From NCBI GenBank assembly GCA_001938485.1, contig MQRK01236597.1, positions 1 to 61,310 of the forward strand: DNA of 61,310 nt, given 5' to 3'. Origin of the DNA: Girardia tigrina (Eukaryota). Positions within the stretch are counted from its first letter, which is position 1; each line of letters starts with the position of its first letter. Position numbers and translations under genes: made by a program. Positions 6,472 through 49,862 of the stretch are shown here, one piece after another. The notes below the pieces were generated by a model. The model searched no databases. It had not been told where the DNA came from and worked only from the letters and a program-made list of their open reading frames with translations.

Positions 6472-8028
6472 TGTGAGGATTTTCTCTGAGTTTAAAATTT
6501 TGAAATTTAAAGAATAACATACCATTAAAATAATTTTAGAATAATTTAAAATCGTAACAAAGTTGAAATTTAATTTAACACGAGATAATAAAGTTAACAA
6601 AATAAAACTACCAGAATAGATATTTGAATAACTAAGACAAATTAAGTAATAAATTTAATTTTAAATAAAAAGTAATTAAGACATGCTTTAATTTGAAAAA
6701 CATCAAAATTTTGTAGAGCTAAGGAAAACATGATTAAATATACGATTTAAAAAGTAAAAACATTTTGTAGACTTAATAGTTGAAAAAAATCATAATCAGA
6801 ATGCTGGCCTATGATTCTATGACTATCAATCCATTATCTTCGGCTGTCTGGAAATGGTTGGTAAATGTGAAAGTTAATTGATAATGAACTCTTCGATCAA
6901 AATCAGGATGATCATCTTCAATTTTTTACTAATTTAATATTGAGAAATTAGTGGGTAATATTTTTGAAGAACCATGGTATAAAAATCAGTCTTGAAATCT
7001 CTTTAATAATCAAAACGAAAATTTATGTAATTCCATGCGAAAAATTGAAAAAATACTAAAAAATTACCACAGAATGAAAGATATCTGGTTTATTGCAGGA
7101 TAAGATCATTGGATCGTGAAAAATTAATTTTAAAAATAGCAAATAAAATTTGTTAAAATGCTTTTTTACAAGCTTTTATTACGTTTCATTTGTTTGTCTG
7201 TCTGGATGCATCAAATTTTGCGATCGAAAATTCACCCACTTCCCGTTCACCTAGCGACATGAAACTTTCAGGACTGATGTATTCTAGGTGACAATACACT
7301 TTTTCACTGTCACTACTCATCTACCGCCTTTAGTTTGACCGCAAAAAGTAATTAAAGTGTCGTTCTCATGTTTTCCTCAGTAGTAGGCTTTGAAATTTGC
7401 TACATCTAAATGAAAATAGAAAGCGGGTTTTCGCCTAGTGGGTGAAATAGATATAGAACCGCAAACATATGACAAATTATAAAAGCTTATACACCAAAAA
7501 TTTTTTTGGTATGATTATACTTATTATCCTTTTAAAAAATATTTTATACCTATTTTTGCAATCAATATTATGAAGATGTAAAATTTAAAAATTGGTCAAT
7601 AACGAAAAACGTTTAGTTCAAACACAATTATTTTGTTCATTTTTCGTTAACAAATTTTTACAAGTAAATACATTTCGTTAAATTGATTATTGTAACTTGT
7701 CAGAAAAAAAACCAACCAACTATTTACAAAAAATATCAAACATTTGTCATTTAATTTTTACAATTTCTTAAAAAATACATTTATAATATATTTCAAAAAT
7801 CTGATTTCAATATTTCCTCTTGTAAAATTTCTATTTTCTAAAATTTTTGTTATCAAAAAACAAATTACAAAATGTAAAGAAAAATAATCGAAAGATTCAA
7901 ATTTTAACCGAGACCGAAAATATCAAAAAGTTTCAGTAAAATTACAAAATATATCAAATTTAATATATTTAATTATAAATTTCAAAGTAATTTTGTTTTA
8001 ATAATACGTAACATCGAGGCAATTTGAA

Positions 8029-11000: not shown

Positions 11001-14000
11001 ATAATTAGACAGTAATTCTGGCCAATAAGAATCTCTTATTAACACAAATCGATCGTTCGAAGCCCGATAGAATCATGAAGCAATGGCCGGTATGAGTGTT
11101 GAGTTAAATGTTGATTGAACGAATCTGTTTCTATAGTCGGGTCACACAGCACCCATTCTCACGATGAGTCTCAACGAATCCTCGACTCGATTGTGTACAG
11201 GCGGTGCCGATAGGAAACTCAAGATTTGGCATATTGGATCTGGCTCGAATAAGGTCTTTGAGTGCTTTTCTCACATATCCAGGATTAAGTAATGGTTTGT
11301 GTCATTATCGTCCATTACTTTTCATTCAGTATCGTTAAACATCAACCGGGAGCCAATGTTGTCGTATCAGTGGCGTTGATGGAACATGATATAATTGCCT
11401 GGGACACAGAGACAGGCAAGCAACTTGGAAAGTTTACTGGGCATCAGGCTACTGTTACGGCAATCGACTTTTATACCCCATCTAATCAGATGATTACGTA
11501 CGTACTGTCATTATTTATTAATGCTTTCTGTCCACTTTATGGAATTTATATTTATTTTATTTATCGATTCGACATTGGTTTTGTTCTCAACCTGGGGCTA
11601 ATTTTGAGACATGCTACTCGATACATTGAATATTCTAAAGTCATTTATTCAACGAAGTCCTTTTTGGACTACACATTTTTTAAGGTTTTCTTTCGACATC
11701 CCAGACAGTTGGTGCGAGAGGCTTCTTTCCCTAATAAAGTTGCTGGAGTAAGATCCCGGGAGGACAGCAGGTGGAGATTCAATTCGAAGTACAATTCAAA
11801 CACTGATCCTCGTTCCATCAATGTTGGCATATGAATTATCTTGATCAAAATTCAATCGCCACCTATTTTTTCACACATGCAGACAAACTATAGAAACCCA
11901 AAACACATTTTTCGCGTTCCGCAAATGTCAAATAACTTTACAACTACGATTTTTAACACTGAAAAAGTTTTATTGAAATTTCATTTTAAAAAAATTTGAC
12001 ACAGTTAAAATTATAATCACGTAAAAAGAAAGTAACATCGTTTCATAATGTATTGGGTTGGCCAAAAAGTCATTGCGTTTTTGAGTACGTCCTAATAAAA
12101 AGCTTGAAAATATAAAACGATGTGATACAATTTAAATTCAATTATATATTCTGAAACCTCAATTTTCAGACTGTTTATACAAAATATTAATTGATTTTGT
12201 TTAAATTTATTACTTTACCGTCAATTCGAAATGGAAAATCAAAATGAGCATATTCGTCATGTTTTGTTGTATTATATTCGCAAAGGGAAAACCGCTGTGC
12301 AAGCTCATAAGAAGATATGTTTTCTATATGGTAGTGACTCCTTAAAACTTCGACAGTGTCAATACTGATTTTCTAAATTTCGTTCTGAAAAATTTCATCT
12401 GAAAGATGCACCACGCTCCGGTCGACCAGTTGAAGTTGATGGCGACAAAATAACAGCACTGATCAAATCTAATCCATACATGACGACAAGAGAAGTTGCA
12501 GAGACTCTGGAAATATCAAAATCAAGTATTGGAAGTCATTGAAAGAAACTTGGATTCGTCAGTAAACTCGATATGTGGTTACCACATGAACTGAAAGAAA
12601 TTCATTTGGTGAAACATATAGACAATTGCGATTCCATTTTGAAGCGAGAACAAAGTGATCCATTTTTGAAGCGCTTAATTACGGGTGACGAAAAATGGAT
12701 TGTTTACAACAATGTGGAACGCCGACGATCATGGACAAAACGTGGTGAGTCTGCCAAAACGATCCCAAAAGCAGAAATTCACCAAAAGAAGGTTATGCTT
12801 TCCGTCTGGTGGGATTTTAAAGGAATTGTGTTTTTTGAACTCCTTCCGAGGAATGAAACCATCAATTCAGACAGATATTGTGGTCGGCTGGAGAAATTGG
12901 CTCATTTAATTCAATAGGAACGTCCTGAATTGGCAAATCGAAAAGGAGTTGTAATTCAGCATGATAACGCAAGACCGCATACAAGTTTGACCACTCGCCA
13001 GAAACTCATATCACTGGGTTGGGAGGTTTTGCCGCACCCACCGTNNNNNNNNNNNNNNNNNNNNNNNNNNNNNNNNNNNNNNNNNNNNNNNNNNNNNNNN
13101 NNNNNNNNNNNNNNNNNNNNNNNNNNNNNNNNNNNNNNNNNNNNNNNNNNNNNNNNNNNNNNNNNNNNNNNNNNNNNNNNNNNNNNNNNNNNNNNNNNNN
13201 NNNNNNNNNNNNNNNNNNNNNNNNGAAGAAAGTGATTGAAAATAATGGACAGTATATCGTGTAAAAATATTTGTGCATCCATGTCATTTTTGATAATAAA
13301 TATTTTAGTAAAAAACGCAATGACTTTTTGGGCAACCCAATATTAATAGAAAAAAATGTCCACCAAAACAAATTGTTACCTTGACTGCATAATTAAATGA
13401 CAACATTTTGACAGTTTGGAGCTTGACTGCTTTGAAGGTGGATCCAAAATTGCCTTATAGCGATTAAACGAGCGTTCTACATCTACAGTGAGAACTGGGT
13501 ATTGCAAAAATTCAAATACCTGCTGATACAACAGAGGTGCGCAATCTGCGACTGAATTTCAGAACGCATAAATTGGAATAGAAAAGGAAGTCTCTCAAAG
13601 CACGTTGATGATACTTTTCTAGCTCAGCGACTTCATTGTGATTTAAACCAAGAACGTTGGCACACTCATTGATGGATGTGTCTTCCATTGCACCAACAAC
13701 AGTAAAATGGAATAACTTCAGAGCTCTCACAATTTGAAACCAGATCGTTTCCAACTTTCTGATGTGTAGAGCGGCAGTGTGAGAATTGACCGGTTTGCAG
13801 CACTTTTAATTGCAGAGGCAGCAGTTTCATTGTTTAAGGGAAGCAAGTAAGTCAAACAACTGACACATACAATTAACTGAAGCATGAACTTCTGCATCAA
13901 ATCTGTAATACATGAGCAGTTACGGGCAATGAAATCAATTTCTGCCTACAGGGTGCCTTCATTTGTAGACAGCAACAAATGAAGTTGCTGAAGAGCAGCA

Positions 14001-17000
14001 ATATCGAATTCATTCTCTCTCTCTTGTACCACGAATCCTAGGTAGTACTTCAACATTTTTGAGTGATAGTCAACTGATCGAAACCAAGTGACCCAATGAG
14101 TTAAACATGATTTTAGAGGATGAATTGATGACACAACATTCTGTTCATGGAGATACGCCAGAAACCGCACGTTTTACGCAACTCATCCTCAACTATGTTC
14201 AGAATTTGAGTGATGCAAGTGACGTGTTGTAGAGCATCTCTCGATTCAGTAATTTCTTTGTGCTTCTTCGTTTCAAAGTTTTCTTTTGAGTCACGGGAAT
14301 GTGGTCTACTGTCTTATTGCAGATCAATTTATTTATTTACCCTAACCAACCCTGTGAACTGAACAAGCGCGTCAACGTTAACCAGTCAACAGTCGTACGG
14401 CGCAGTTACAGAACAACGCAATTGTGATCAGCTATCTAAACTGAACAAAAAAATCAGCGAGTTAAGGAAATATGTGGGCCATAGTGGACGTAAGGTCATA
14501 CTGCTGCATGATAACGCTAGACCACATCCGCCCTATTCACCGGACTTGTCTCCAACAGATTATCTCGCTGGACAACATTTCAAAAAACGCGATGAAGTCA
14601 AGAAACGCATAGATGACTTCATTGATTCGAAAGATGAAGACTTGTTCACCAAAGGCATCTATTTGTTGCAACAAAGATGGCAAAAGACCACAGATGGTAA
14701 TGGTGAATTCTTTGCAGATTAATCGTACGCCACTTTGATTTGAAAAATAAATAGCTTTAATTAGAAATGGTCGGAAATTTATGCATCACCCTAATATTAG
14801 GTGTATAACTTAGTTTTTTGGATTTTTTGCAGAACAGACAAGTTTATTTATATTGAATATCAGTAATCGACTTTCAATGTTGGCTTGATTCAATTCAAGT
14901 GGTATCCATTTTCCTTCTTTTTGAATCATTTTCATAGCATGTAAACGTTTACTTATGGCTGCTTGAGTAACATTTAACTGTTTTGCAAGCTCTTTCTCTG
15001 CTTGAGTAGAATCTTCCTTCAGTAATGATTCCAAATCTTCATCTTCGAATCTCTTTGGTTGACCGGAACGCTCTTTGTCACTTACGTCGAAATCTCCACT
15101 TGAAACGTTTATACCAGTTCTCGCAAGTCTGTTGAGTTGGTGCATGTTGACCATAAGTTTCTTCAAGAAGCCGAAAACTGTCTGCAGCTTTTTTCTTTTG
15201 ATTAAAGCAAAACAGTAGNNNNNNNNNNNNNNNNNNNNNNNNNNNNNNNNNNNNNNNNNNNNNNNNNNNNNNNNNNNNNNNNNNNNNNNNNNNNNNNNNN
15301 NNNNNNNNNNNNAATGCCTCGATTTCAGCACTTTAAAAATCTGTACGTACGACTGTAAAATAATGCTTATTACAAAGGTTACACCATCTCTTAGAAAATC
15401 CAAAAAACTAAGTTATACACCTAATAATTGCAAAATGGAGTTGTAAATTTGTGGTATGAAATTTTTTTTTCTGCAAAATATTTTAATAGTTAATACAAAT
15501 GTAATGGTAATTTTCCCTTCTACAAAAGATAACAACAATATTCTGTTGGTCAATTAGATTTCTGTCCTCATAAAAAATGAATATGAAATTTTTTGTGATT
15601 TATTCGTTTTTCAATTATTTTAATTCAATATTCAGTTCGAGCAGAGACGAAACCGTGTTTGTGTGGGATTGCAAGCTGTTCTCGAAGCTGGTCTCCATCT
15701 CAGTCCAAGAAGAAATTCTGTCGTGCGCAGTCATCACCGGGGGATTCCAGAACCAACCGGAGTCCGATCCGTATTTGGTAATGATCGGAGGAGAGAGCGG
15801 CATAATCCGCACCCTCAGCGTCTCAAAGAAAAAAATCATCCAGGAATTCAAAAAGTCTTCGATCTTTCATTCAAATCACATTGACGAATCCGATGGCAAA
15901 GATCAATCCAGAACCATCCGATCGATTATCGTGAATAATGAATCGATAATTGTGTGCCGACAAAACGACAGCGTTGAGTTTTATTCGCGAGAAATGCGTT
16001 CCCAATTCGAATTGCTCGGTGGACTCGGAGACGTGCGACAAATGGCGCTAGTTGGAACAAAGCGCGATCGATTATTGGCAGTCGATACCGGTTCTGGAAG
16101 GAGTTGCATGCGTTTGTTCTCGTGTCAATCATTTTTTGGTCAGTCGAATATCGATATTGACGAAGATACTTCGGAGGAAGAGAAGAGGTTGTGGCCGTGT
16201 CAGTCGATAGGGGGAGGTCACCACAAGGACATCTCGTCGTTATTTGTGTTTAATAACGGGACTGGAGTCGTGTCGGGAGGCAAGGACGGACTGGTTTGTG
16301 TGTGGCGATTGGAGAATGATTGCGGTTGTGATCGATTGTCACTTGTCAGTACCCTGGCGGTTCCTGGAGCTGAGAACGGTTCCCAAGTTTCGGCGATTGC
16401 TGCTCATGAAGCCGGAAAATATTTCTTTGTGACATACAGCATCGCTGGTGACGCCGTTCAGTTAGAGAACTCTCGCGGTGAAGAGTGGATAGCTGTGCTC
16501 ATTTACACAGGAACAGAGTTGAAAGTTGCGAGTCGATGTCGGTCGATGCATCAAAAGACCGTCTACTGTATGGATGTAAATTTGACCGGGACAGTGGTTG
16601 CCACTGGATCTCGGGACAGAACAGTTAGAATCTGGAAATTGAAACAAGATACTAACGAGCTGGTTTGTGAGGGGAAAATGGCCGGACACAAAGGACACGT
16701 GCAATCCGTTCAATTTTCAACCAAAGAACAGATGTTGTTGACGGCATCGAGAGACAAGACTGTTAAACTATGGTCTGTGAAGGATTTCTCGTGTGTTTCT
16801 GTGAGTTTTTGGTTGATTTTTCTGTGTATTTATTTTATATTTTTTAATTTGTATAACACTCATTCATTCCCCGCTTTCGTTTGTCGATTCTTCTAATTAA
16901 ACAAAAGTGCGATAAAATTCACAATCACAAGGCCTAATCTGACTTTAAGGGGAGCTAGTTAAAATTAATTCCCAGACAATTGGATAGTAGGAAATTAAAT

Positions 17001-18903
17001 AATCGACAAAATTATTGACAAAACACGAAAGAAATATTTAAGGAGAAACATTTATTATCAACACTAAGGTATATATTAGGTTGGTCGAAAAATAATGGCG
17101 GTTTTTGACCTTTATACTTTGTTTATCTACTTTGATATGTATATAAGTTTAAATGCATTAGTGTTAGATATTATTTGAAATCTTATGCNNNNNNNNNNNN
17201 NNNNNNNNNNNNNNNNNNNNNNNNNNNNNNNNNNNNNNNNNNNNNNNNNNNNNNNNNNNNNNNNNNNNNNNNNNNNNNNNNNNNNNNNNNNNNNNNNNNN
17301 NNNNNNNNNNNNNNNNNNNNNNNNNNNNNNNNNNNNNNNNNNNNNNNNNNNNNNNNNNNNNNNNNNNNNNNNNNNNNNNNNNNNNNNNNNNNNNNNNNNN
17401 NNNNNNNNNNNNNNNNNNNNNNNNNNNNNNNNNNNNNNNNNNNNNNNNNNNNNNNNNNNNNNNNNNNNNNNNNNNNNNNNNNNNNNNNNNNNNNNNNNNN
17501 NNNNNNNNNNNNNNNNNNNNNNNNNNNNNNNNNNNNNNNNNNNNNNNNNNNNNNNNNNNNNNNNNNNNNNNNNNNNNNNNNNNNNNNNNNNNNNNNNNNN
17601 NNNNNNNNNNNNNNNNNNNNNNNNNNNNNNNNNNNNNNNNNNNNNNNNNNNNNNNNNNNNNNNNNNNNNNNNNNNNNNNNNNNNNNNNNNNNNNNNNNNN
17701 NNNNNNNNNNNNNNNNNNNNNNNNNNNNNNNNNNNNNNNNNNNNNNNNNNNNNNNNNNNNNNNNNNNNNNNNNNNNNNNNNNNNNNNNNNNNNNNNNNNN
17801 NNNNNNNNNNNNNNNNNNNNNNNNNNNNNNNNNNNNNNNNNNNNCAACGGACTTCTACTTTTTCAGGCATTTGTACAACTTCCTACGTGAAAAAATTTTC
17901 AAAAACCAAAATGATGCTCAAAATGCCTTCGAAGAATTCGTCGCTTCGAGAACCGATGCATTTATGCTGATGGAATAAAACAACTTGTTTCTCGTTTGCA
18001 AAAATGTATTGATGCCAACGGTTCATACTTTGATTAATAAACTTTTGTTTCTGTGAATTTTCACGTCTTTGAAGTTTGTGTCCCAAAACCGCCATTATTT
18101 TTCGATCAACCTAATATTATATTGATTACTGAAGATTACCCAATCTCTTCAAATATTTGATCTTGTTAGGTTCATTGGCATAGGTTTGTACTTCCTCAGC
18201 AACTAGAAGATTTAGCTCAACATATCTTCTTTTCTTAATATCTTTTCGACCTCCATGAACATTGGCAAGTGTCAGTCGATATAAAAGTCAGTCGATATAG
18301 TTGGTTGTTTTTGGAGATCCATCTGCGGCAGCATCAAAGTAGATCCAAAAACAATTGGAAATGTAGGATTTCTTCCACCTGGGCCCTCATTGCACGTGGT
18401 AGAAAAGTAGCTGAGGAAGTCATTGTAACCATCCTCATCAGAAAACTCTAGCATAAGTATTCTATAGATATGATAGATTTCATTCTGACTTTGATATCAC
18501 GATCCGAATCAAACTCAGTTTTCAATCCAAATGATACAACCTTCCTAACAAGTCTTTAGCACAAGTAAGAAATGCTTCTTGTGCTGTTAATTTACAAACT
18601 TTTTCAAAGTCAATGAGGATTTTCTGAGGAGACAAGTTTGGAAGAACATCATTCAGTATAATAAACGTAACCAAATTGTCAAATACCCATATGGTATTAC
18701 ACAATTGTCCGATCACCGTTAAGATTATACAAGTCAGTTGCGGGTGCCGTTTTTTCTTTGATACTGATAGATATACCTGTTGTCAAAAAATATAACCTCT
18801 AAATTTGGCCAAATGTTGACATCTATTTGATATGGTAACCAGAAAATTCGACACACATACTATTCGACATACTTTTCCTTCGACACAGTAAAAGTTAATT
18901 TTT

Positions 18904-18944
<41 letters not shown>

Positions 18945-21900
18945 CATTTGTTCATATTAAATTGATATTTTTATATGAAATACATATTTATCATACTAAA
19001 TACATGTTTTTTGAAACTAAAATACTTGCGTCGGCTAGCTAATTTGCAATGAATAAAATTTTAAAAATTAACTTTTACTGTGTCGAATTAAAAAAATTGT
19101 GTTGTCTTATTGTCGAATTAACTTTACTGTGTCCAAGGAAAAGTATGTCAAATTGTCTTGTGTCGAATTTTCATGGAACCATTTGATATTCCAATAATGT
19201 ATCATTTCCCTATAAGAATTCCTAAAAAATCATCTTCTATTTGATCTTGAATATCTGCATTAAAATCTTAATTTTTTGGCCAAATTGGAGGTTTTTCATT
19301 GATTTATAAAAGATTGTTTCTAAAAGTGGCCGAAATTGGAAGTTGGTCAAATTTAGATGTTATACTGTAATTGAACTAAGTTCTGTGATCTGATATTCAA
19401 ACCGAAATTTGACTTTTGTAACTTTGGGCGGGTAAATATTGATATTCACTAAATATGCAACAAAAAGAACTGTACATCAGTATAAAAATCATCCACCAAT
19501 TTAGACGCAAGTTATTTTGGGTATAATTCGTAGACATCTCTTCATCGTTATTAAGAACATTGAGACAATTCCCATTTGAATTTTTATTACAATCACATTT
19601 AGAGTTATTACAACTCTCGGAAGATCTTTCGTCGTTTGAAATCGCTCTTATTGGTTTTGTTATTTCAATTTTTAATCAATGATTATTCGAATAATTTTTC
19701 TCAATCTTTTAAAAATATTGAGTTTCTAAAGATATTAATCAAAAATAATTTTAACCATTTTATAAAAACCCAAAATAATAAAAATGTCATCAAATTATTG
19801 AAAATGACTTTAATTTAAATCTTATTAAATTTAATTAAATGCTTTTTTACAAAATATTAAACTTAATTTAAATTGTTAATTTAAAAAATATACACTTATC
19901 AAATTATTACTTTAATTATGATCGAAGAATTACTCACTTTAAATTGTATAAAATAACGATTTCCATCTGGGTGCAGAATTCCAATTCTAATTTCAACATA
20001 CTTAAATCAACATACATCATCAATACATTCATACAATTTTAAATATTCCTCATAATCGTTGCAATTTTCTTTATGCTGCTCTTTCTTTATAAGCGAAAAT
20101 AACCATGGGTCACATCTTCCAACCTGCTAGGTTGTGAATGCAAAAGAATGGCTTTTAGTTTTGTTGGGCTTGATTGAAATTTGCGCCAACTTTTGTCCTT
20201 CTGAATTTGCATCAAGCAGAATTTCTTGCTCCAAGTGAAAATCAGATCTCTTTTAAGTTGACATATTTCGTTATCAATGTGCTTGAAGAAACATTAATTC
20301 CAAGTCACGACACTGACATGTTAAGATAATTTTGTTCTGACTTAGACAAGAAAGGTATCAATTGATTCCGATAGAAATTTTGTTTTTTTTAATATTTTTA
20401 TTAACTGATTAAATGAAATATGAGTATTAATAAATATTAATAATTCGAAAGACGTATAAATCGGAGCATGAAAATCTTCGGGCGATATTCTACAATGATG
20501 AATCTCTAATCATGTCATGGTATTATTATTGATTAGTTTTGATTTATTTATTTGTGATGTTTGGCCAGCAACGATAAGGGGTTCGTGAGCGTTTGGAATA
20601 GAGAGACTTGTTTGTTGATTGATAACTTCGTGAAATATGACGATCCGATATATTGTTTGGTCGAAATGATCGATTATGACAACGATGAACCGAAATCTCG
20701 TGGTTTTGTGGTTGGAGGTGCACTGTCCCTGATCTGTATATATGAAGACACAACGGAGAAGATTCTGGCCCAGCAGAAGATCGACAAGAATCTCGAGATA
20801 CAACAGTAAATCACTATCAAATCTAATAGTACACTATCGATCAATTCTTTTCTTCTTACTAGAACTCAAGACCTCGACAATCTTTTACAAGCGAAAGAAT
20901 ATTCACAAGCCGTTAAATTATCGATAAAAATGAATCGACCGAAACTGACGTATCGATTATTCAAAAAGATATTTTATGAACTCTCAGAACAAAACATGGG
21001 TGTTGATTCGAACATTCTAACGATCGACAACATCTTGAAGGACCTTTCAATAGACGACGTGAAACAAGTGTGTCAATTGGCATTGAAATGGTACATGCGG
21101 TACGAATCATTGGTGCTGGCGCAGCGGATCGTCTTTTGGGTGACCAGTAGACTGACTGAAGAACAGATACGCGAATGCATTGAGTTCGAGGAATCCAATG
21201 CTATGGTCAATAAATACGGTCAGTGCCTAATTTTGTATTAATTATTGATTTTCACTGATTACTGATTTGTATAAATAATTGATATTTTTAAAAAAATACT
21301 TTGTTAAATTTTTACTTTTTTTGACTTTAGTACTATGTAGTGCTAATTATATAATTATGTACCTTATTCAAGTTATAAACACTTCTATTCATTTTCAAAT
21401 ATTGATTTGGAAAGTAATTAATGTCCGCTATTATTAATAAAATTTTAATCAATTTTGATTAAATTATCAAGATTAAATTACTTGACCCCACTTCGTGACC
21501 AACTTTTCGACCCAATCCCTCAAGAACTCCGGGGACTTTGAGACAATAAATGAATTGATAGCCCGTGTGACATCCTCTTCATCTGCGAACTCTTTTCCCA
21601 CTAAGAAGTTTTGCAGAGATCGAAACAGGTGGTAATCCGATGCGGCCGTGTCTGGACTATATGGTTCGTGGGGCAGGACCTCCCACCAATAATCTATGAT
21701 ATTTTGTTGTGTCATTCTTGCAACATGTGGCCGAGAGTTATCTTGCTAAAGAATGACAATGACCTTTTCTATTAACAAGAGATTGCCTGTTCCTCTTCAG
21801 ATTTTCATTCAGCCGGTTCAATTGGGCACAATAGACTTCAGCCGTAATAGTTTTGTTAGGGTCTATGAGTTTCTAGTGCACCATTCCGTTCGGATCCCAC

Positions 21901-26888: not shown

Positions 26889-29800
26889 CTATAATGAGTT
26901 AACAAGAAATCTGTGTTCAGCGTTTTTCTTGTTTGAATGTTTTATGGTGTGCGTGTCGGTGTTGCTTTGTTGTGTTGGGAAAGTGTAGGTTATTGTGGCA
27001 GGTGTTTTTATTGGTGCGGCCAGAAGGTCGGTTATAATGCTCAAGTTCTCGTGTTGGGATGATGAAGCGTGCGTGATTGATTTTTCGATGGAACCGTCAT
27101 CGTCTATGAAGAATGCGGGTTTGGTGTTGGACAGGTGAACCCCTATTTCTTTGTTGTCCTTTAGAATTTTGGCATTATGGAAAAAGAGTTGGACGATTTT
27201 GAAAGGGCCTGTGAATGATGGAGCTAGATCGGATGTGTGTTGGTTCTTTAACCAAAGATATTTGACTTCGTATAGTGATTTCGCTAGGTGCGGCTTGAAA
27301 TTGTTATACACCTTGCAATAATAATTGTCGTCCATGTAATCAAAGTGGAGTCTTGCTTTTTGGATGTCTGACTCTGATGGCGGGGCGTTTTGATCGATGA
27401 GGTCGGCGATGAAACGTGCTAAATGACCAAATACAGCCTGGGTGGGTGAAGTGTTGGTGGAAGAACAAGGTGTGTTGCATCAACCTAAAAGTACGAATGG
27501 TAACACATCGATCCAACTGTTAGTCTTTTCAGCAAGGATTCGCATTGATGTTTTGAAAGTGCGATGAAAACTTTCGATTGCACCGTTGGTTTGTGGATGG
27601 TAAGCTAAGATTTGGATATGAGTGGTGCCAAGGCGTCTGACTATATCTTTCAATAAACCTACCTCAAATTGTCTTCCTTGGTCGGAGATTAGATGTTTTA
27701 TGGCGCTGAAACAGCAGACCCACGTGGATAGGAACGTTTTGGTGATCGTTTCTGCGTCGATGTTGCGGAGTGGCATGGCTTCGGGTAATTTGGTGGCTCT
27801 ATTGATCATCGTTAAAAGGTATTGGTAGCCGTGATTTGATGGTAAACGTCCGACGATGTAGATGTGGACCGTATCGAATTGGGTTGATAAGGGTAGTGAT
27901 AAAGTTTTGGTTTTAACTTCCGGTTTATCTTGTATTTTTGGCACGATAAACATTGCTCGACACATTGATGGACGTCACCCCGCATCTATGGCCAAATCAC
28001 GCATGTGTGTAACAGATTGTATATATTAGCGTTTCCGGGGGGATTGAGGTTGTGGATGTGGTCGAAGGCTGTTTTACACAAGGTCTCGCTAAGTATTGGT
28101 CTTGGGGTGTCTGGAAGGGAAAGGTCGAAATGTATTCTCTTGATTGTGGATATTTGTTTAAATTTCGATAAATCATTTGCGGATGGTGGATTTTTTTAGG
28201 AGCTTTTGTGGTGTGAAAATTGGTTGGAAATCGATTGATGCGACTGAACTGGAAAGGCAATCGGCGGCGACGTTTTCTTTGCCGGGGATGTGCATTATCG
28301 AGAAACTGAATTCAGAAAGAAAGGATATTTGCCCTTGTTGGCGTAGTGATGGGTCTTTCATGGATAGAATATAAATTAAGGGTTTGTGATCAGTTATTAT
28401 GACAAAGCGATGGCCAATCAAAAACGGTTTAAAATGTTGACGGTGAGGGAAATTGCGAGCAGTTCTCGACTGAACATGGAATAACGTTGCTCGAGGGGGT
28501 TGAATTTGTAAGAAAAGAACTCTAGGGGTTCGGCATTGCTAGAGATAATTTGTTGCAGCACTGCGCCAGCGGCAACATTGAAAGCATCTGTAATGAGCTC
28601 CAAAGGTGCACCTTTTACGGGGTAGACTAAAACAGTTAATTTTGTCAGGGCTGCCTTGACCCTTGTCTGAATTCTTCTGACCATTGGACGACTTGTTTTT
28701 TTGGTCCTGAGCTGGCTGCAGAAAGTGGTGCCGTTAATGATGAACAGTTGGGGACGTACCTCTGACAATAATTCACCATTCCTAGAAAACTGCGGAGGTC
28801 AGAGACGGTTTTCGGTGGTGTGATGAACTGTATGGATTGTAGTTTATTTTCGAGTGGTGAGTGACCATGATCTGAAATGGTGTGGCCTAAGAAGGTAACA
28901 GATGGTTTAACGAAATTACATTTACACCATTTTATCTGTAAGTTGGCCTCTTTTAATCGCGAGAAAACTAGTTGGAGGTGTTGGATGTGTTCGCTAGTGT
29001 TGGGTGAAGCGATGAGTATATTGTCTATATAAGGGTGTGCAAAAAGGAAATCGGCGAGAATTTCGTCTATGTACCGCTGAAAGGTTTGTGTGGAGTTGCG
29101 TAGGTCAAAAGGCATCCGGATGTATTCGAAAAGGCCAAAAGGTGTTGTGACGGCTGTTTTAGCGATATCTGTCGGGTTTACTGGTACTTTGTGAAGGTCG
29201 ATCGTTGAAAAAATGGTTGACGAGGTAATTCGGTGAAAGATATAGGTTAATAGTGGGAGTGGGTAGCTATCTGAGACTGTTGCAGAATTGAGGAGTCTAT
29301 AATCTCCACATGGCCTCACGGTACATTCCTTTTTGGTGGCTATATGCAGGTGTGTGGCCCAGGGTGATGCTGAACGGCGTACGATTCCATCTTTTTCGAG
29401 CGTCAGGAATTCTTTCTCGACAGTTGAGCGTATGTTTGGCGGTATCGGTCGTAGTTTTGTTTGATAGGGTGATAATGTGGTGATTATGTTATGTTGCGTG
29501 TTATACTTGGAGTTGACTGTCTTTGACTTCGGAATTGTGTTCTTGCAGGTAATGTTAATGTAGTCGATTAGTTCTTGTGGTAGTGATGCCGTGTATGGTT
29601 TAATGTTTTCGTGATCTGTGGTGTTGTGATATGTTTGTTGTGGTTGGCTGTTAGTTGTCTGTTGTGCTTGTTTGCATGTTTTTGTGTTTCTATTTGTTGT
29701 AATATCGTGTTTAAGTTGATTTACTTCTTTGTTAAATTCATCGGAGAAATTTACGTGTTTTGATGTATTTGTGATTAAGTTGGAGTAAAGGTTGTTTGTC

Positions 29801-31474
29801 AATTTCTGTATGATTGTCGTTTTAGTATAGGTTCTGTGTGTTTGTGAGTGTTGTTTTTTGGTGTGGTGTTCTGTAATTTTTTGTTTTGGCAGTCAATGAG
29901 AATGCAGAAATGCGTGAAAAAATCGGCACCTAAGTTCGGGAATTCGACGTCGGCCACTATAAGCGTCCAAGTAAAAGGTTGTTTTCAAGATGGTTGAGTA
30001 AAATTCAGTATTGTGGATCCTGCTGTTTGAATCGGGGACCCATTTACTGCTCTGAGGACGTCAAGATTGTGAGAATTTTGCTCTGGTCTGAAGGAGAGTG
30101 GTAGGAGTGATACTGCGCAACCAGAGTCTACGAGAAAGTTTATTTTTGGGTGTTTGGTGGTGAAAGTGGTGGCCTCGGTAAAGAAAACTTCTGGGGAGCT
30201 CGTGTCTATAAGCGATACGGTGATCGTTTGGCAGCGGTGTTATGTGCCTGCACTCATAGTTGCCGCTGGCTCGGGTCGGCCTAGCAGTTTAAAGAAGGGT
30301 TAGATTCTCTGGACTGCCAGTTGAAGGGTTGTGTGCATCGTCGGGTATTTTCCTTAAATTTGGCGTGGTAGATGCACGGGGAAAGGGAATATTTCTTTGC
30401 ATCGAAGAACTTGCAGCCTGCGTGGCACTTATTGGCGGAGGAGCTGGATTTGTGGTGGTAGTAGCAGATCTGTGGTTTGGGTGTTCTGGATCTGCCGCGG
30501 GCTGGACTACTCGAACGGGATGAAGATCGGGTGTGTAGTTTTGAAATACTTGCTGTTAGTTTAGAGAGTGTCTCTTTTAGGGCTTTTGTCTCTTCCTGTA
30601 GTGCCTGGTGTGGTTCTGCTGCAGTGATCGGTGATGGTGTTTGATTTGAGCGTTCGAGATCGATGGACCTGTCGGCAATCTTCGCCAGTTCATCTAGGGG
30701 GACTGAAGGCGGTACTACTGCCATCAACAATTGCAATTGTGGTGGTAGGGTTGCGGTAAACAACTGCCGGACGGTGTCGTCGTTGGTTATATTAATACCT
30801 AGTCTCTGCAGGTTAATTTGTGTAGTCACCAAATATTGGGATGGTAAAGCTGTGCCAAAAGAATAAGTTTTAAAATAGATCTGGAGTACATCCGGTTGGT
30901 GTGGTGTTGTTAAAGTTATTGTTGCCTTTTTTAGGTGTTCGTCAGTGTCGTTATGGTTTAATATTTGTGCCAGGTTCGTGATTTTGGTTAGGTAATCATG
31001 TGGCAGCAAAGAAAAAAGACTATAGGCTTTCTGGGAGGATGTGTTTAGGCCTGACGCGGTAGTCCAAGCATCGTGGATCTCGAGCCAAGATTTTGCGGAG
31101 GCTTGTGCGTCTAAGAAAAACTACACGCAGTTGATGGAGGGTGCTCGTGTTTCGGTTTTTTTTGCGGTTTCGGCCTCATCATTTTCGCCATGGGCCTTAA
31201 TGTGTGCCTCAATTAAGTTATTATTGTTGATGTATGTTTGTGTTTTAAATTGTATGTCAGGTGTGTTTGGGATGACTGTGCTGTGGAAAGTGAGATAGAA
31301 TTTTACTGTTTTGGTTGTCTGTGTAAGATGTGTTATCTTAATGTACATCTGTTGAGCGGTGTATTGTGGTGAGATTTGCATTGCGTATGTTTTGTTGTTT
31401 ATATATTTGATTTTTAGTTGCATAGTGTTTTGTTGTGTGTTGTCTTCGTGATGGGGCATTTGTGGTAGAGGCAT
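26889..31474 (-). mobile_element. Decayed Ty3/Gypsy retrotransposon, CsRn1-like clade: UBL-Gag / PR-RT-RH-IN
   Basis: Gag carries a Cx2Hx9Cx3C motif. Protease FLVDSGCAVSLLP...LGADF. RT RPCGDYRLLN, KTAVTTPFGLFEYIRMPF and YIDN (mutated YIDD). RNase H LITDAFNVAAGAVLQQ...YSMFSRELLAI and TDHKPL. Integrase FDTVHIYIVGRLP, SDQGRQFE, YHPQTNGAIESFH and FTGPFKI. Many stops and frameshifts; no LTRs seen. Confidence 0.92.
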
Positions 31475-32426: not shown

Positions 32427-32619
32427 TCTCTTACACAGGTCGATTGATATTTTTGAATATTTTTTGATTCAGATTGTTCGAACTCACTTTCATATTTAAA
32501 TTTTGATCATTTATTATTATAGCTTATAATAATAATTGATCATAATTTAAATATGAAAGTGAGTTCGAACAATCTGAATCAAAAAATACTTAAAAATATC
32601 AATCTACCTGTCTAAGAGA
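32427..32619. repeat. ~190-bp near-perfect palindrome (foldback/MITE core)
   Basis: About 95-bp arms with few mismatches around a 3-nt centre near 32523. Confidence 0.9.
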
Positions 32620-33030
32620 ACTATGGCTAATTGACGTCAAAACCCCATATGATACAAAGGGGCTTTTGAAGAAAATCAGAGAAGAAAACGTGAAAAAATA
32701 TAAGCAGCTGGCAGAAGAGGCGAAGCAAAACCACAGGGCCTGGATCGTACGACTGGGTACCCTGGTGGTAGGCTGCTTGGGTTCATGGACGGAGGACTAC
32801 GATAAGATGTTGACTTCCTTCAAGCTAACAAGGACCACACTGGTGAATCTTCGAAGAATGTGCGTTGTCTCCGACATTAAATATTGTGCAATAACCTGGA
32901 GCAAGCACAATACCGGCAAATGGAAGCCGATTCAAAACATGGATGGATGAGGCGTGATCGGCGCGAAACTTTGCAAAGGACGAGTTAGTTCGCAGTATCC
33001 GATGATTACCCATGGGAAACTACTTTATCT
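32618..33030 (+). mobile_element. 5'-truncated non-LTR retrotransposon with a restriction-like endonuclease (NeSL/R5/Utopia-like 3' end)
   Basis: LWLIDVKTPYD...ENVKKYKQLAEE...LVVGCLGSW...AITWSKH matches the RLE IDV..P.D / K..KY..L / VG.LGSW motifs. A short GC-richer 3' UTR follows. Confidence 0.8.
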
Positions 33031-37279: not shown

Positions 37280-38646
37280 CAGTCAGGTAAAAAAGTTTGT
37301 GAACGCTTGTTGTTAAATTGTCTTTTGCACCCAACTGCAATTACATTGACAAAAGCACAACAAAATACAAAGATTTTATTAGAACATTATAATAAGACGC
37401 AAATTTATCAAAACTTGTCATAACTGGCACATAAACCACGAAAAACCAGTGTATATTTAGTATTTTATGTGTTTACTCTTATTTTTGAGAACAGAATGAA
37501 TTCGGTCAGGCATCTAACGGCATACTTTTTACAATAGTCGGGTGACACTTTTTGAGTCCAAACAGTTTCCACTGCTTTGATCATGTCCTGCAGGGAATAT
37601 AGGTGCATGGCAGCAACCTGTTTCTTCACCTGGGCCCAGGCATTCTCAATCGGATTAAGATCCGGTGAGTTGCTTGGCCACGGACCAAGAATTTGGAATC
37701 CTAACTGCACTAACCACTCTCGAACAGGCTCAACATTGTGGTACGGTGCTCCATCATGCTGAAAGAAGGTCATTCTGTGTAACTCCATAAATGGTGGCAA
37801 CTTTTCCTTTAAGATTTCTAAATAAACTGTACCATTTATGGTGTTTCCCTTTGGTATGAACCACAGCCCTTCATGACTACGTGATGAAATAGCACCAAAA
37901 ATCATCAATTTTTCAAGCATCCTGACAGTGGGCACCAGATATTTAGGATCAAAACGTTTATTTTGAGGTCGCCAAATATTACCAGAGGTGCTAGGAAACT
38001 GTGTTATGGTTGTCTCGTCACTAAATAGCACGCAGTCCCACTGCTCTACAGTTCAATGCTCATAACGCTTGCAGAAGGCAACACGATCTGAAATATATTT
38101 TGCAGATAGTAGTGGTTTTTTGACTGACTTTGAGGACTTGAGACCTCCATCAGCTAATCTGCGACGGATTAACCAGTTGCTGACGGTTTGCAAATACTGG
38201 GACAGCCTACTGCGAAGTTGTACTGCTATAACATGAGGAGTTCTTTTAGACTCCTGTAAAATTTTTCTGTCGTCTCTTTGACTGGTTGAGCATGGGCGAC
38301 CAGATCGAGATCTTGAACATAAGGATCCAGTCTCTCTTTTTTTCTGAACAGTCTGACACACAACTCCAAGAGAAACATTAAGAGTTGTAGCTATTTGTCG
38401 ATAAGAAACGCTGTGCTTCTGCAATGCCAAACTGCTGCACGCTGTTCTGTTGTTAGCTCCTTGCCGCGGACAGGCATGATTCTAAAATAAATAATGACAA
38501 TTTATAACTTGAAAAGTAATAAAAATAAAATATGCATTTCATCATTTAAATGGTTTATATATACTTAACAAGGAATACACAAACATGCAGTGCAACAACA
38601 AAAAGTAGTATAGAAACGAGCGTTCACAAACTTTTGCACCTGACTG
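37280..38646 (-). mobile_element. Tc1-family DNA transposon with DD35E triad, full length but frameshifted
   Basis: About 32-bp TIRs CAGTCAGGT(AA/GC)AAAAGTTTGTGAACGCT. The transposase runs from the ATG at 38477 to 37465, with RSGRP, LFSDE and QHDGAP-(35 aa)-PDLNPIE. The TA target duplications are not preserved. Confidence 0.92.
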
Positions 38647-45276: not shown

Positions 45277-48200
45277 TTAATCTTTCATTCTAAAGTTGAG
45301 CTTGTTTATCAACACATGGGCGCTTGGACGACACTGGGGTTCAGGACAGAGGATTAATTTGATCACAGCTTTCATCTCGTTTGAAATAGAGGAAATTGAT
45401 TTAAATTTAATCTTTTTTGAACTTCCAATTTTAAAGATCACAGCATTCTGACTTAAATCGTGATAGGGAGGATGACCTAAAATGTTGTATCTTATTAATT
45501 TTAAAGTCAATATTGTTTTGTTTACTTGCAAAAACAAAGATAATTAGAATAAGATTGATTAATTTGTATATTAATATATGATTCATAGGAATAAAACATT
45601 TTGTATTAATATTTTTAGACAAAATCATATAATATTACTTATCGTTACCTTCGATTTAACACCACATTCTCATGTGATATTTGAAGGGAAACCGGACAAT
45701 TCGGAGCAGAATGTTTTCATACATTTGAAAACATTAAAATAAATAATTTATAGTGTTATTAATATTATCCTTTAGTCTTTTCAATGAACGTATTTATAAT
45801 TTTTAAGCTTTTTATATTCTGTGTGATAAAACTATCACGTATGGGAAAACAACCAAAGGAAAATCTTCAGCCATCTATGGGATATACGAATTTTTGAAGC
45901 AAAGAGAATATAGAAACGGTGCAAGTTATATAAATTATTGAACTGTCCAGCCACTATTACAACATTAGACATTAATGTAAGAATGACTTAGGCGTGGTGA
46001 TATTTATATTTCAGCAAAATTTTCATTGGAAATATGGAATCAATACAAAGCTGCAGCAGATGGTGTTGCAAGGACTATAAATTCCGTCGAAAAATGGTAT
46101 TATGGATTGCAAGCATTGTTTCAATGTCGTCATCCAACATTGTGAAAATTTATGATAGGAATCGAAAAGTATATACAAATTCAAAAATTTTTGTTTCTTC
46201 AGGGAATTTCAGGTACAGAATTTCCAACATCAAGAAAATACTGATTTTTGAAAGAAGGAGTAAAAAAGGCCGTTGAACGTTAAAATTCCAGTAGAATTCT
46301 AATATACTTAGGCTGTATTGCTCATTTGTCTAACATTTGATTATTTAATATATTTGATAACTATTATTGTTGTTTAATTTTATTTTTAAATTATTTTATT
46401 TCTGTAGTCTAAAAATATTTCAGTGTTTATAAAAAATTCAATCTTTATGTTTTTTTAAAAAAGTGTCAAAAGATAAAATGTTCAAAAATAAGTGATAAAG
46501 TGACTAAGTTATCAAATGTAAGTGACAAAGTGTCCCAAAATCATTTTTTAATATTTGTAATAAGTTTTTGAATTTTATGCATTTTTTTATAATAAACATA
46601 TTTTGCATTCTTTATTAATTGTATTTTATTTAGTTATCTTTTTCATGAGGAATATTCAAAAAATATTTATTGATTTTCAGCACTTGGTATATTCTATTTT
46701 TTTATCATTTTCTAGTGTTAAAAACAACTTTTTTGTAGGTTAGGAAACGGCACTCCAAAGACCAGGCTTTCTGAATCAGCACTCGACATCGAATTATGCT
46801 GTCAAAATTTTCAAGTCGGACTGAATAGTTTGAGATTTCACTAGGATTCCATAGTTGCATCACACCAAAACACAAATTAAAATGCTTTTTTTGACAGGTC
46901 GATCATTTTGTTATCCCAATCAGCTCGATGGGACAACTTTTTGGAGTTGTGGAATTGAAATATCGACTCCGAATCGATTAAATTGTTCACAATTGCGAAT
47001 TTGTGAATCGATTTTTGATTGACTTTTTCGAATACAGTATTATTTTTGACAAAAGATTTTTATTTACTAGTTTTACAAAAAACACATTGGTATTAATTAG
47101 TCACACAAAATGTATCCATTCTTCAGAAAATAATAACATTTTGCTTTTCTTTATAACACCAGAAAAGACAAATAAAATTATGTACAAGGTTTAGGTCGGA
47201 TAAAACCTTTTCAAATGTTTTTTTTATTAAGATAATATGTTTTGTAAAGTCAACTGTTATCAATAGACAGTTATATTAATGCACAAAAGATGAATATGTA
47301 ATGGATTTTATAAATCTTGCTAATCATAAATTTTCAATTACCAAATTGAGACTTCCGTTTGGCATTGATTTTAAAGGAATATAACCTAATTATCAATGTT
47401 TCAGGCGTCGCTGTCCCAATAACAATTAAAACGCTCACACAGAATTTCGAAATTATCAATTCTCTCACCAGTTCAGTAATATTATTCATACCATCTTGTC
47501 GACCATGTTATTGAATACGTTTATAGAGATGGCAGTAGACAGTCTCTCCAATGTAAGTAGCATCGCTCATGTAAGATAGTGTTGTTGTTAATTTTATAAT
47601 TTTCGAAAATAGGAATTTTGGAATTATAATCGAAATTAAAAGAAAATATTGGAAAATAAAATTAAAAAAAGGAAAATAAAAAAAATGAAAATTCGTATAA
47701 ATAACAAATTTAACCTTTTGTAGTTTTGAATAAATTTTGAAAGTCTTGATTTCTTTTAATTTAGAATGGTAGTAAATTCTCAACCTAACAACACCCATTA
47801 CATTTATTTCATAAATAATATCGAAACAGTGTTATTTTTGAAATTATTTAGAGTTTTGAGACCGTAAAATATTTTTTAATTTAATTAATAGTTTGCAGTA
47901 AAATTGTATCACGATCTCATACGTCTCATAATATAATCGGTAAAAAAGTTTGTCTCAATATTTAGTATTTATTAGGCATGTACAAGTTTCACTTTTTCAA
48001 AACAAACCGGTACCGGTGCCGGTATTTTTTAAAAGTAGCAAAACCGTCCGGTGCTGGTGCCGGTTTTGAAAAATAAAAATTACCCTGATTTCACTGATTT
48101 CATTTTGATCAAAAATCCAATCTTTTATAACTAGTTGAAGGGAGTGTGCAAAGCATGGAACTTGCTGAAGGCCAATGAAATTCATCTCACGAAATGCTTT

Positions 48201-49862
48201 GGTAATATTAGGAGCATTGTCATGTAAAAATGTATGGCAGTTACTTAGTGAAATGTTCCAGTTAGTAAACATTTCTCTGAACAGAGATCCAATATTATCA
48301 GATGTATGCCGATCATCAAATGATATAAAATGTAAAACTACTAAACGAAGTAAAAAATCTGATTGTAACCAATGAGCAGTCAGGCTCATATAAGACTGTG
48401 TTGTGTGTTCTGCAGTCCAGATATCAACAGTAAAAGATACACCACTGTCCTTTGGCATGAGCTTCTCTATCATCATCTTCATTTTATCATATAGAAAAGG
48501 GAGAACATTCTCGGTAAAGTACTTTCTAGAAGGAATTTTATATCTTGGTTCAAGTTGATTTAGAAGGAACTGAAACCCCTCATTTTCCAAAATTTGGATG
48601 GGCTGGATATCAATAGCCATCATTTTACCAATAGCTCGATCGATTGTAATCGCTGATGGGTGGTCTCTCTCCCACATTTTGACACGATTGATGCATTGTT
48701 CCAAAGTTTGTTGAGAGCTACTGGTATTTGTTGGAATTGAAGGACACTTTTCAGAGAAAGCAATTGGATGTGACGTAGGATGGTGTATGTTGATGTATTC
48801 ATTTGGGTGTCTACTTCGTATATGAGAAATCAGATTTGAAGTACTGAAATTTCTAGTGTTTCCAGCTTGACGACGTAGTATATTCTTATGATAGATATTA
48901 CATCTTGCGATGTGAGACGCATTTGAACATACGGTATAAAATTGCCATACATGACTTGTCTTATTTTTGAAACTGATAGTGTAATAATTTGAATATTAAT
49001 TTTAAATGTGATAATAATAAATGAATATTTAAACAAATATATTATTTAAGTAAAAAAATTTTTCCAAATTTTTCGTTCGAAAATAATATTATTCATTTTA
49101 TTAATATTCATAGTAAGTAGCATTTATTTATTCAAAACTGAAAAAAAACCGGCACATTTTGCCGGTTTCGGTTCCGGAACCGGTGCTTGAAAATACCCGG
49201 TATTACCGGTTTGCCCGTGCCTGTGCCGAAAACCGATACATCCCCAGTATTTATGAAAAAAACAGAATTAAGAACCTGAATACATCTCCACAATTGTTAC
49301 TCCTACAGACCATATGTCTGCAGAAAAAGTATATTTCTTGCCGATAATAACTTCCGGGGCCATATAATTGGCCGTCCCACAAAATGTGCTAGCATATACG
49401 CTTCCTCGGCTTGACATGTTTTCCAAACATCGACTCAAACCAAAGTCGGTAAGTTTGATTCTCCCATTTTTATCTAACAACATATTTTCAGCTTTAATTA
49501 TATATAAATGATTTTGTCTAAAATTTTAAAATCATACGTTTAATGTCACGGTGAATAATTTTGTTATCGTGTAGGAAAACGATTCCCTCGGCAATTTGCT
49601 TCGCGAATTTTATAACAGTAATCTCCGGCATTGTCTTTTCTTTTTTTATGAGTCCTTTTAAGGAGCCCTAAAATTAAAACTTGTTTATACGATATAGTCA
49701 TTTATCAGTTTTTTATGTTTACATCTGAATTTAGATGAAATTCTTTAAGCAAGAGTTTTCTAACGTTTTTAGATGAGGGTGATAATTTATTCTAGCTTCT
49801 AGAATAACGTACACCTGTTTCAAATACTGACTATTGATATGAGTGTTAGGATAAGGGTAGTC

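Follow-up and report, generated by a model that had tools for sequence, protein, structure and literature searches.

Ubiquitin-like domains with a Gly-Gly end stand ahead of Gag in a lineage of CsRn1-like Ty3/Gypsy retrotransposons

Introduction

The polyproteins of certain pestiviruses (BVDV Osloss, CP1, and CP Rit) carry inserted ubiquitin, with other cellular sequence upstream of it (PMC8310069, PMC13517609), and in cytopathic pestiviruses host hydrolases cut after the inserted ubiquitin to generate the authentic N-terminus of NS3 (PMC8310069). Host genes furnish related arrangements: USP5 cuts after the ubiquitin-like domain of SDE2 (PMC13572447), and in FUBI-eS30 and the ubiquitin-ribosomal protein fusions the domain is removed by a host USP, freeing the functional C-terminal part (PMC8354635). 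Among mobile elements, Burro/GYPSM1, giant Gypsy elements of planarians, encode a Ubi2/SUMO-like motif (PF11976) along with other captured domains in their polyprotein; there, Gag is N-terminal, the SUMO-like motif is one of the accessory domains downstream, and the accessible part of the report describes no processing role for a Gly-Gly (PMC6431247). Also within Gypsy, CsRn1, PwRn1, and AgCR are characterized by a CHCC Gag, a DT/SG protease, a GPY/F integrase, and their domain order, with the CsRn1 clade being defined by the CHCC motif Cx2Hx9Cx3C, a tRNA-Trp primer site, and a 4-bp target duplication (PMC2582038).

Here, we analyze a 61,310-nt stretch of the Girardia tigrina genome (contig MQRK01236597.1 of assembly GCA_001938485.1, positions 1 to 61,310; henceforth the window), in which a decayed retrotransposon encodes a ubiquitin-like domain (UBL) ahead of Gag. 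The resulting UBL-GG-Gag arrangement is real, clade-wide, and under selection. It resembles the pestiviral insertions in that a captured ubiquitin lies within a polyprotein, where a host cut would give the next protein a defined N-terminus. However, whereas the pestiviral insertions are sporadic, belong to single RNA-virus strains, and consist of host-like ubiquitin, the domain described here is fixed in a deep retrotransposon clade, is 9–39% identical between families, and stands ahead of Gag. SDE2 and FUBI-eS30 similarly place a divergent ubiquitin-like domain ahead of a functional C-terminal part, but there the domain occupies the true N-terminus of a host gene product, without a leader and outside any mobile element. 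With the CsRn1 clade, our elements share the CHCC, DT/SG, and GPY/F motifs and the domain order, with DUF7041 in relatives; they differ in their tRNA-Leu primer, 5-bp duplication, the doubled CHCC motif of the main clade, and the leader-UBL-GG module. At ~5.5–6 kb, they stand apart from the giant Burro elements, whose SUMO-like motif is the nearest published note to UBL-GG-Gag. The word ubiquitin is absent from the main text of PMC2582038 and PMC12801592 and appears in PMC9289625 in the references alone. Within the literature searched, UBL-GG-Gag retrotransposons are apparently undescribed, and Repbase reports, subscription journals, and supplements could hold a description.

Results

A decayed Gypsy element in the window

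The window contains the following features:

26912..31464, minus strand: internal part of a dead Ty3/Gypsy element of family A, LTR-less and truncated at both ends (blastn homology to other copies stops at 31464 and 26912)
31424..31464, minus strand: in-frame leader, the last remnant before the ubiquitin-like domain (common to other copies; synonymous differences between subfamilies by eye)
31184..31423, minus strand: ubiquitin-like (beta-grasp) domain, 80 aa, with a Gly-Glu end here and Gly-Gly in most copies
31124..31183, minus strand: linker of 20 codons between the domain and Gag (predicted disordered in the family-D model)
31121..31123, minus strand: stop codon private to the window copy (28 of 29 other copies have an in-frame sense codon there)
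30281..31120, minus strand: Gag, with a predicted helical capsid-like part and a coiled coil (DUF7041 matched by relatives)
30323..30466, minus strand: tandem pair of Cx2Hx9Cx3C (CHCC) motifs, the second without its last Cys here (read from the sequence)
29900..30150, limits approximate, minus strand: broken aspartic protease, with DSG at 30128-30120 (read from the sequence)
28876..29334, minus strand: reverse transcriptase (RT) with a damaged YxDD motif (Pfam RVT_1, E 8e-21)
28176..28798, minus strand: frameshifted RNase H (Pfam RT_RNaseH_2, E 3e-17; RT_RNaseH, E 2e-7)
26912..27974, minus strand: stop-broken integrase, comprising the core and a GPF-bearing C-terminal part (Pfam rve, E 2e-5; motif read from the translation)

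The 190-bp LTR of family A has no match in the window, and the copy, with both ends truncated and its pol domains broken, is dead, as an earlier note on this DNA had stated. Upon re-reading, the translation of 31423-31184 (minus) quoted there agrees, as does the in-frame run into Gag: the minus-strand frame passes from the domain through the 20-codon linker and one stop (31123-31121) into a Gag frame of 279 codons. A Pfam search of the window's own Gag returned no match; in relatives, for example L064, both CHCC motifs are intact. Downstream of Gag, the broken protease, RT, RNase H, and integrase follow in the Ty3/Gypsy order. The gap between protease and RT (29500-29892, minus) holds ~130 codons of Thr/Asn/His/Gln-rich low complexity, by eye shorter or absent in other families. 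The same note described the domain as fused in frame to the N-terminus of Gag; the in-frame fusion stands, but the domain is internal in many copies, and it looked N-terminal in the window because this copy is 5'-truncated 41 nt upstream of it.

The domain has a predicted ubiquitin fold

Taken alone, the window domain is a weak match to ubiquitin: since Pfam reaches only Rad60-SLD at E 0.079 and a single-sequence search for homologous proteins gave 1 match among 3751 candidates, single-sequence searches are nearly blind to it. Its residues 1-30 score 2.2 bits per repeat against ubiquitin repeats, and the ESM Atlas offers leads only (0.88–0.90). When 27 natural copies are combined in a profile, the match to ubiquitin covers its full length, and 43 of the 44 PDB rows are ubiquitin, its variants, or fusions (single-copy E-values in this search are just 0.001–1). 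The AlphaFold2 model built on these 27 copies has a beta-grasp topology (pLDDT 81). With this model, the top Foldseek rows are ubiquitin (E 1e-4, TM 0.78), and VIA-align returns ISG15 and ubiquitin at Z 11.8–11.6 (rmsd 1.7–2.3 Å over 75 residues), bearing out the ubiquitin fold that had been proposed from the single copy; integral UBLs score nearly as high (Dsk2, Z 11.3; midnolin, Z 10.9). The family-D domain (L064), 18% identical to a family-A copy, is predicted to adopt the beta-grasp fold too, its GG tail being modeled at low confidence. Judging by these models, the window and family-D domains are both members of the beta-grasp superfamily, with its ~76-residue fold.

In Pfam, the window and genome copies fall below the PF00240 cut-off (best E 0.0035–0.004), and relatives such as P0012, P0036, P0042, P0056, P0131, P0155, and P0158-P0161 pass it, with E reaching 1e-24. 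Since several relatives pass the ubiquitin cut-off, the domain by all appearances descends from ubiquitin or a close relative.

The Gly-Gly end and selection on the domain

Across the 1.43 Gb of genome, there are at least 150 matches (150 of 150 candidates scored). In the 29 best other copies, the domain ends in Gly-Gly in 21, in GR in four, in SG in three, and in DW in one, the window-like end occurring in none; at the junction, 28 have a sense codon and one a frameshift, with the window's stop again in none. Hence, the segment and a continuous UBL-Gag frame belong to other copies as well, a point the earlier note had proposed to check, and the three outcomes it had set against its own reading all turned out otherwise: the fold is matched, the segment is present elsewhere, and the family does not keep the stop. 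The same layout recurs in families with Gag 36–51% identical to that of the window and in distant ones with RT ~50% identical, giving about a dozen families with the domain-GG-Gag layout in our own grouping; the between-family domain identities of 9–39% compare one copy per family and leave one same-family pair aside.

A C-terminal Gly-Gly on a flexible tail, as in the type I cleaved modifiers, is found in those 21 of 29 family-A copies, though not in the window copy. Across 124 distinct loci, 84 have a GG at 12–38 residues ahead of the capsid-like part; none of 897 control windows taken within Gag does, nor does any of the 13 loci of a domain-less family. The 40 loci without an in-frame GG are frameshifted, truncated, or mutated copies and a few single-copy families (L094, L097, L120). 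L167-L174, considered as a family with a swapped domain, were rejected as such, being frameshifted copies. Within family A, conservation of the two glycines (0.82 and 0.77) does not exceed the column average (0.85), so that their retention there fits neutral decay and does not single out GG. Among the domains, GG is the most constant column, and between families the surfaces differ by 60–90%. Many of the tails, such as AHGG, LVGG, ILGG, and LPGG, are without the Arg residues carried by the tail of ubiquitin. The residue after GG is mostly Ser, Met, Asn, Gly, Thr, or Ala, being Asn in all 22 family-A copies counted and Met in 9/9 copies of one other family. Ubiquitin precursors are cut after GG, and Pro after the site blocks cutting; Pro follows GG in 0 of the 84 loci and 0 of 44 database proteins, which is weak evidence.

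Selection was gauged by classing variants against the commonest codon per column, as private or as shared by at least three copies; duplicates, copies with N, and frameshifted copies were dropped before the selection, stop-bias, and GG-position counts. In three families (22, 32, and 9 copies), dN/dS of the shared variants is 0.12–0.19 in the domain and 0.05–0.11 in the capsid, well in line with the value below 1 proposed earlier as a check, whereas private variants stand at 0.95–1.6 (Fisher p for shared vs private 1e-8, 2e-10, and 7e-4, values which overstate independence as the copies are related). The private changes are decay after insertion. The low shared-variant dN/dS thus indicates that the domain was needed as a protein while the elements were mobile.

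Relatives and classification

A profile search of 1.84 billion cluster representatives, with follow-up, yielded 167 proteins; a domain with a GG end precedes the capsid part in at least 44 of them, and the search pattern missed three more. The association of a UBL with a CHCC Gag, which the earlier note had proposed seeking in other genomes, is thereby found well beyond family A and in two Gag clades. Some of these database relatives carry near-canonical ubiquitin; P0001 and P0003-P0006 are near-identical to families of this genome. In a midpoint-rooted FastTree phylogeny of the capsid part, which took in at most 60 domain-less proteins, the domain carriers fall into two groups: a 65-row clade (support 99), including this genome's families, and one of 6 rows (support 100) surrounded by ordinary CHCC-type Gags. 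This suggests two origins of the domain-Gag fusion. Our RT tree, a quick one made without an outgroup, gives no root. Members of the main clade have two CHCC motifs in tandem, and those of the second have one. Among 80 metagenome CHCC-type Gag loci, 69 had enough upstream DNA, and the domain was seen in one of these 69, a locus matching a protein used in the profile.

The elements have the hallmarks of Ty3/Gypsy: Gag followed by PR-RT-RH-IN, LTRs beginning with TG and ending with CA, and a primer site. The family-D Gag model is all-helical, and the Foldseek rows listed for it are all ubiquitin-like. Like the CsRn1 clade, they have the CHCC motif in Gag and the DT/SG protease and GPY/F integrase motifs; however, the primer site is that of tRNA-Leu rather than tRNA-Trp, and the target duplication is of 5 bp rather than 4 bp (12 of 14 cases in family D; in family A, one exact solo LTR and one full element with four of five positions). 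Because the tRNA-Trp and 4-bp features are lacking, the elements are CsRn1-like and not members of CsRn1, which upholds the earlier label as a likeness and not as membership.

The leader, start codons, and primer site

Many copies have a stop-free frame that runs from the primer-binding site, by way of a leader of 50–350 codons, into the domain. Over the 60 codons upstream of the domain, stops number 58 in the Gag frame and 115 and 188 in the other two (46 copies), against 39, 46, and 43 in a control family (14 copies). Over the whole distance from primer site to Gag (172–459 codons), the Gag frame is open in 11 of 45 loci and either other frame in 0 of 45, the leaders being interrupted in the remaining 34. 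With a long in-frame leader usually ahead of it, the domain would work more as a processing site within the protein than as a tag at its N-terminus.

In related copies (the window lacks the site), the primer site pairs with tRNA-Leu(CAG), matching the 3' end of its genes in this genome. In many families, the site reads Met/Leu-Val-Ser-Glu in the Gag frame. An ATG at the domain start is not conserved: it is present in 13 of 20 family-A copies and was not observed in families C, E, G, and H, while an ATG at the first codon of the domain occurs in many copies of A, D, and I. Counting ATGs in frame at the domain or within 40 codons of it adds family C to D, I, and many A copies, and in these the long leader therefore need not be translated. 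Splicing as the source of a start codon was rejected, with no GT..AG joint in the contigs of four runs aligned to L064; contigs from all four runs bridge the domain-Gag junction, and with one run being RNA by its record, such contigs cannot prove transcription.

In the domain-less family, Gag starts at an ATG on the LTR end/primer site, 56 nt upstream, with no leader. As this family is nested in the large Gag clade, it suggests loss of the domain. The family (L081-L085, L175-L186) is young and abundant, with at least 152 matches.

Leaders are unrelated between subfamilies, and several are Phe/Tyr/Ile-rich, with hydrophobic stretches by eye. Those of family A (L010, L019, L022, L049) vary in length (~380–1050 nt) and contain short tandem repeats. 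The family E leader (L107:1028-1964), of ~310 codons, is well conserved between copies without a Pfam match, and it may have a function of its own.

LTRs and captured host pieces

The family I LTR (~1.12 kb, TG..CA) is multi-copy, with at least 44 matches listed (40 candidates scored of 861) and exact 5-bp target duplications at 19 of 21 solo LTRs. It holds the intronless 5' part of Hsp90 from its ATG (193 codons; PDB E 6e-84), followed by 109 further open codons, the whole frame being that of Gag. The piece is 71% identical to the intact host Hsp90 gene and 92% identical to a stop-bearing copy. Because the piece is found at 21 sites in solo LTRs flanked by target duplications, we rejected an insertion into the host gene as its source. 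Within the Hsp90 part, shared variants appear neutral (dN/dS 0.9–1.15), and the 98 shared variants of the LTR frame include no stop, against ~3.4 expected by our own arithmetic, nor is the commonest codon ever a stop across the 302 columns. The frame of this LTR thus appears to be kept while its amino-acid sequence is free, which is what one would expect if the leader is translated but can be discarded.

Two further host fragments, from ribosomal protein P0/L10 (L077) and INTS7 (L128), are located ahead of the primer site, each in sense orientation and in frame with Gag. When 36 loci and one added frame were screened with Pfam, host genes made up 2 of the 117 sense frames and none of the 67 antisense ones, after short frames (61 of 177 sense, 39 of 106 antisense) had been left out; the three other matches were domains of neighboring transposons, two of them out of frame. 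One family-D LTR carries an unnamed membrane-protein-like frame, in the Gag frame by our reading. Bax inhibitor-1 had been expected in the LTR of L064, where this other membrane-protein-like frame was found instead, and a by-eye label of 'tetraspanin' for it was dropped, having no support from Pfam, PDB, or the Atlas. Membership in an LTR is established for just the Hsp90 and membrane-protein-like frames. The leaders of database proteins include pieces of histone H2A, Bax inhibitor-1, Rrp44/CNOT1, 5'-nucleotidase, SCC3, and RING, which are in frame by ascertainment. Further pieces, labeled by eye as CSL4 (P0028), LRRC47 (P0036), and a C-type lectin (P0046), have no Pfam match, and for P0028 there is no PDB match either. 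In P0009/P0153, each leader has two host pieces, DIS3/Rrp44 before the apparent primer-site codons and CNOT1 after.

Other LTRs are without a host gene, namely those of family A (190 bp, AT-rich, with no long frame), family C (~195 bp), and one D type (~530 bp). Paired LTRs are 96.9–99.3% identical in families A, C, and D, and LTR replacement within families is rapid. The L061, L074, L063, L064, L095, L126, and L128 elements have near-identical internal regions with unrelated LTRs sharing the last 30–190 nt or less. The LTRs of L221 (oriented 1683-2047 and 7139-7352) have a common start, agree over 214 nt, and diverge completely after that. Fragments of the Hsp90 middle domain occur at dozens of genome loci, and their limits recur (profile positions ~152-334 and 240-350), which would fit carriage by other mobile elements.

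Discussion

We favor, on balance, a scheme in which a leader-UBL-GG-Gag polyprotein is cut by a host deubiquitinase, freeing Gag from a disposable leader. The leader, ubiquitin-like domain, Gly-Gly, linker, and Gag would be encoded in a single frame, with the polyprotein made from an upstream start, be it the ATG overlapping the primer site, a leader ATG, or a host-mRNA start codon captured in the LTR. The domain would fold on its own ahead of the disordered linker, and a host deubiquitinase would then cut after the Gly-Gly, releasing Gag with a defined N-terminus whatever stands upstream; the linker would become the new N-terminus of Gag, and the leader and any foreign part would be discarded. 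The benefit to the element would be freedom at its front end. While the fusion, the Gly-Gly, the selection, the open leader, and the capture of Hsp90 are observed directly and the fold is predicted, we infer the translation of the leader, the cleavage, the host enzyme as the cutter, and the front-end freedom.

The separate parts of this scheme differ in strength. Cleavage at GG by a host enzyme is probable, though many of the tails lack the Arg residues of ubiquitin; retroviral-type proteases prefer hydrophobic sites, and a scan of pol frames showed no cysteine protease domain. An element-encoded deubiquitinase was considered but not seen, the Ulp1 match near L194 lying upstream of the element and out of frame. 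That insulation from a variable leader is the main purpose seems to us somewhat more plausible than not. The earlier note had offered a cleavable leader, a stability tag, or a trafficking signal: a captured UBL with a GG, under selection, is borne out and a cleavable signal is its best reading, but we found no evidence for ESCRT recruitment or trafficking.

An unlikely, though by no means negligible, alternative is that the domain is cut off and yet serves the folding or yield of Gag or the exposure of an N-degron, the open leader being incidental. This would account equally for the GG and the selection, and it gains from the ATG at the first codon of the domain in many A, D, and I copies and from the constancy in some families of the residue after GG (Asn in 22/22, Met in 9/9). 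However, the frame bias over 50–350 upstream codons and the stop-free, amino-acid-neutral Hsp90 frame of the LTR would go unexplained, and the exposed residues are mostly Ser, Met, Thr, Gly, or Ala, all of which are stabilizing under the N-end rule.

Less probable still is that the released leader-UBL is itself an effector, either a decoy or conjugated modifier that disturbs ubiquitin-dependent host defense or a membrane-anchored piece. Its free C-terminal GG would indeed be exposed, the domain diverges fast between families, hydrophobic stretches are visible by eye in the leaders, and Burro elements bear several ubiquitin-system domains (PMC6431247). But leaders of different subfamilies are unrelated, the single LTR-borne piece examined (Hsp90) is neutral at the amino-acid level, hydrophobic translations arise from T-rich codons alone, and a successful family (at least 152 matches) has lost the whole module.

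That the domain stays attached as an integral UBL recruiting the proteasome, p97, or ESCRT to Gag, with the GG a relic, is improbable: fold-search scores of integral UBLs near that of ubiquitin (Dsk2, Z 11.3; midnolin, Z 10.9) and the action of engineered Ub-Gag fusions as late domains (PMC2958808) are compatible with it, but a relic GG would have drifted, whereas GG is the most constant column among domains whose surfaces differ by 60–90%. Finally, a fusion by chance or with an unrelated neighboring sequence, for which only the weak Pfam score of the single sequence could speak, is refuted by a domain that is family-wide, inside the element downstream of the primer site, and under selection, and by close relatives passing the Pfam ubiquitin cut-off at E 1e-20 to 1e-24.

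Returning to the disposable-leader scheme, we tentatively extend it to the host pieces, with a confidence somewhat short of even. LTRs may repeatedly capture 5' pieces of host mRNAs (Hsp90, P0, INTS7, H2A, Bax inhibitor-1, DIS3) in frame, thereby borrowing start codons and translation signals, while the ubiquitin cut-site would strip them off via host deubiquitinases, a trick that would have arisen at least twice. If true, these elements would be, so far as our searches reach, the first LTR-retrotransposon lineage to need a host deubiquitinase for Gag maturation, as well as the first stable and ancient parallel to the ubiquitin insertions that occur sporadically in pestiviruses; this would also tie the way in which a mobile element secures its translation to the capture of host genes by LTRs. 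Moreover, with dozens of diverged ubiquitin-like domains under selection for an exposed GG, the lineage would offer a natural library for deubiquitinase specificity.

Other features of the window

Beyond the element, the plus strand at 11289-21241 carries the exons of a WD40-repeat host gene, presumably TBL3/Utp13-like by its by-eye label. By eye, there are also Tc1/mariner and hAT-like transposase remnants at 37465-38481, 14810-15412, 50238-50744, and 47997-48995 and fragments of non-LTR retrotransposons at 32594-32950 and 52982-54144. A near-perfect 95-nt palindrome lies at 32427-32619.
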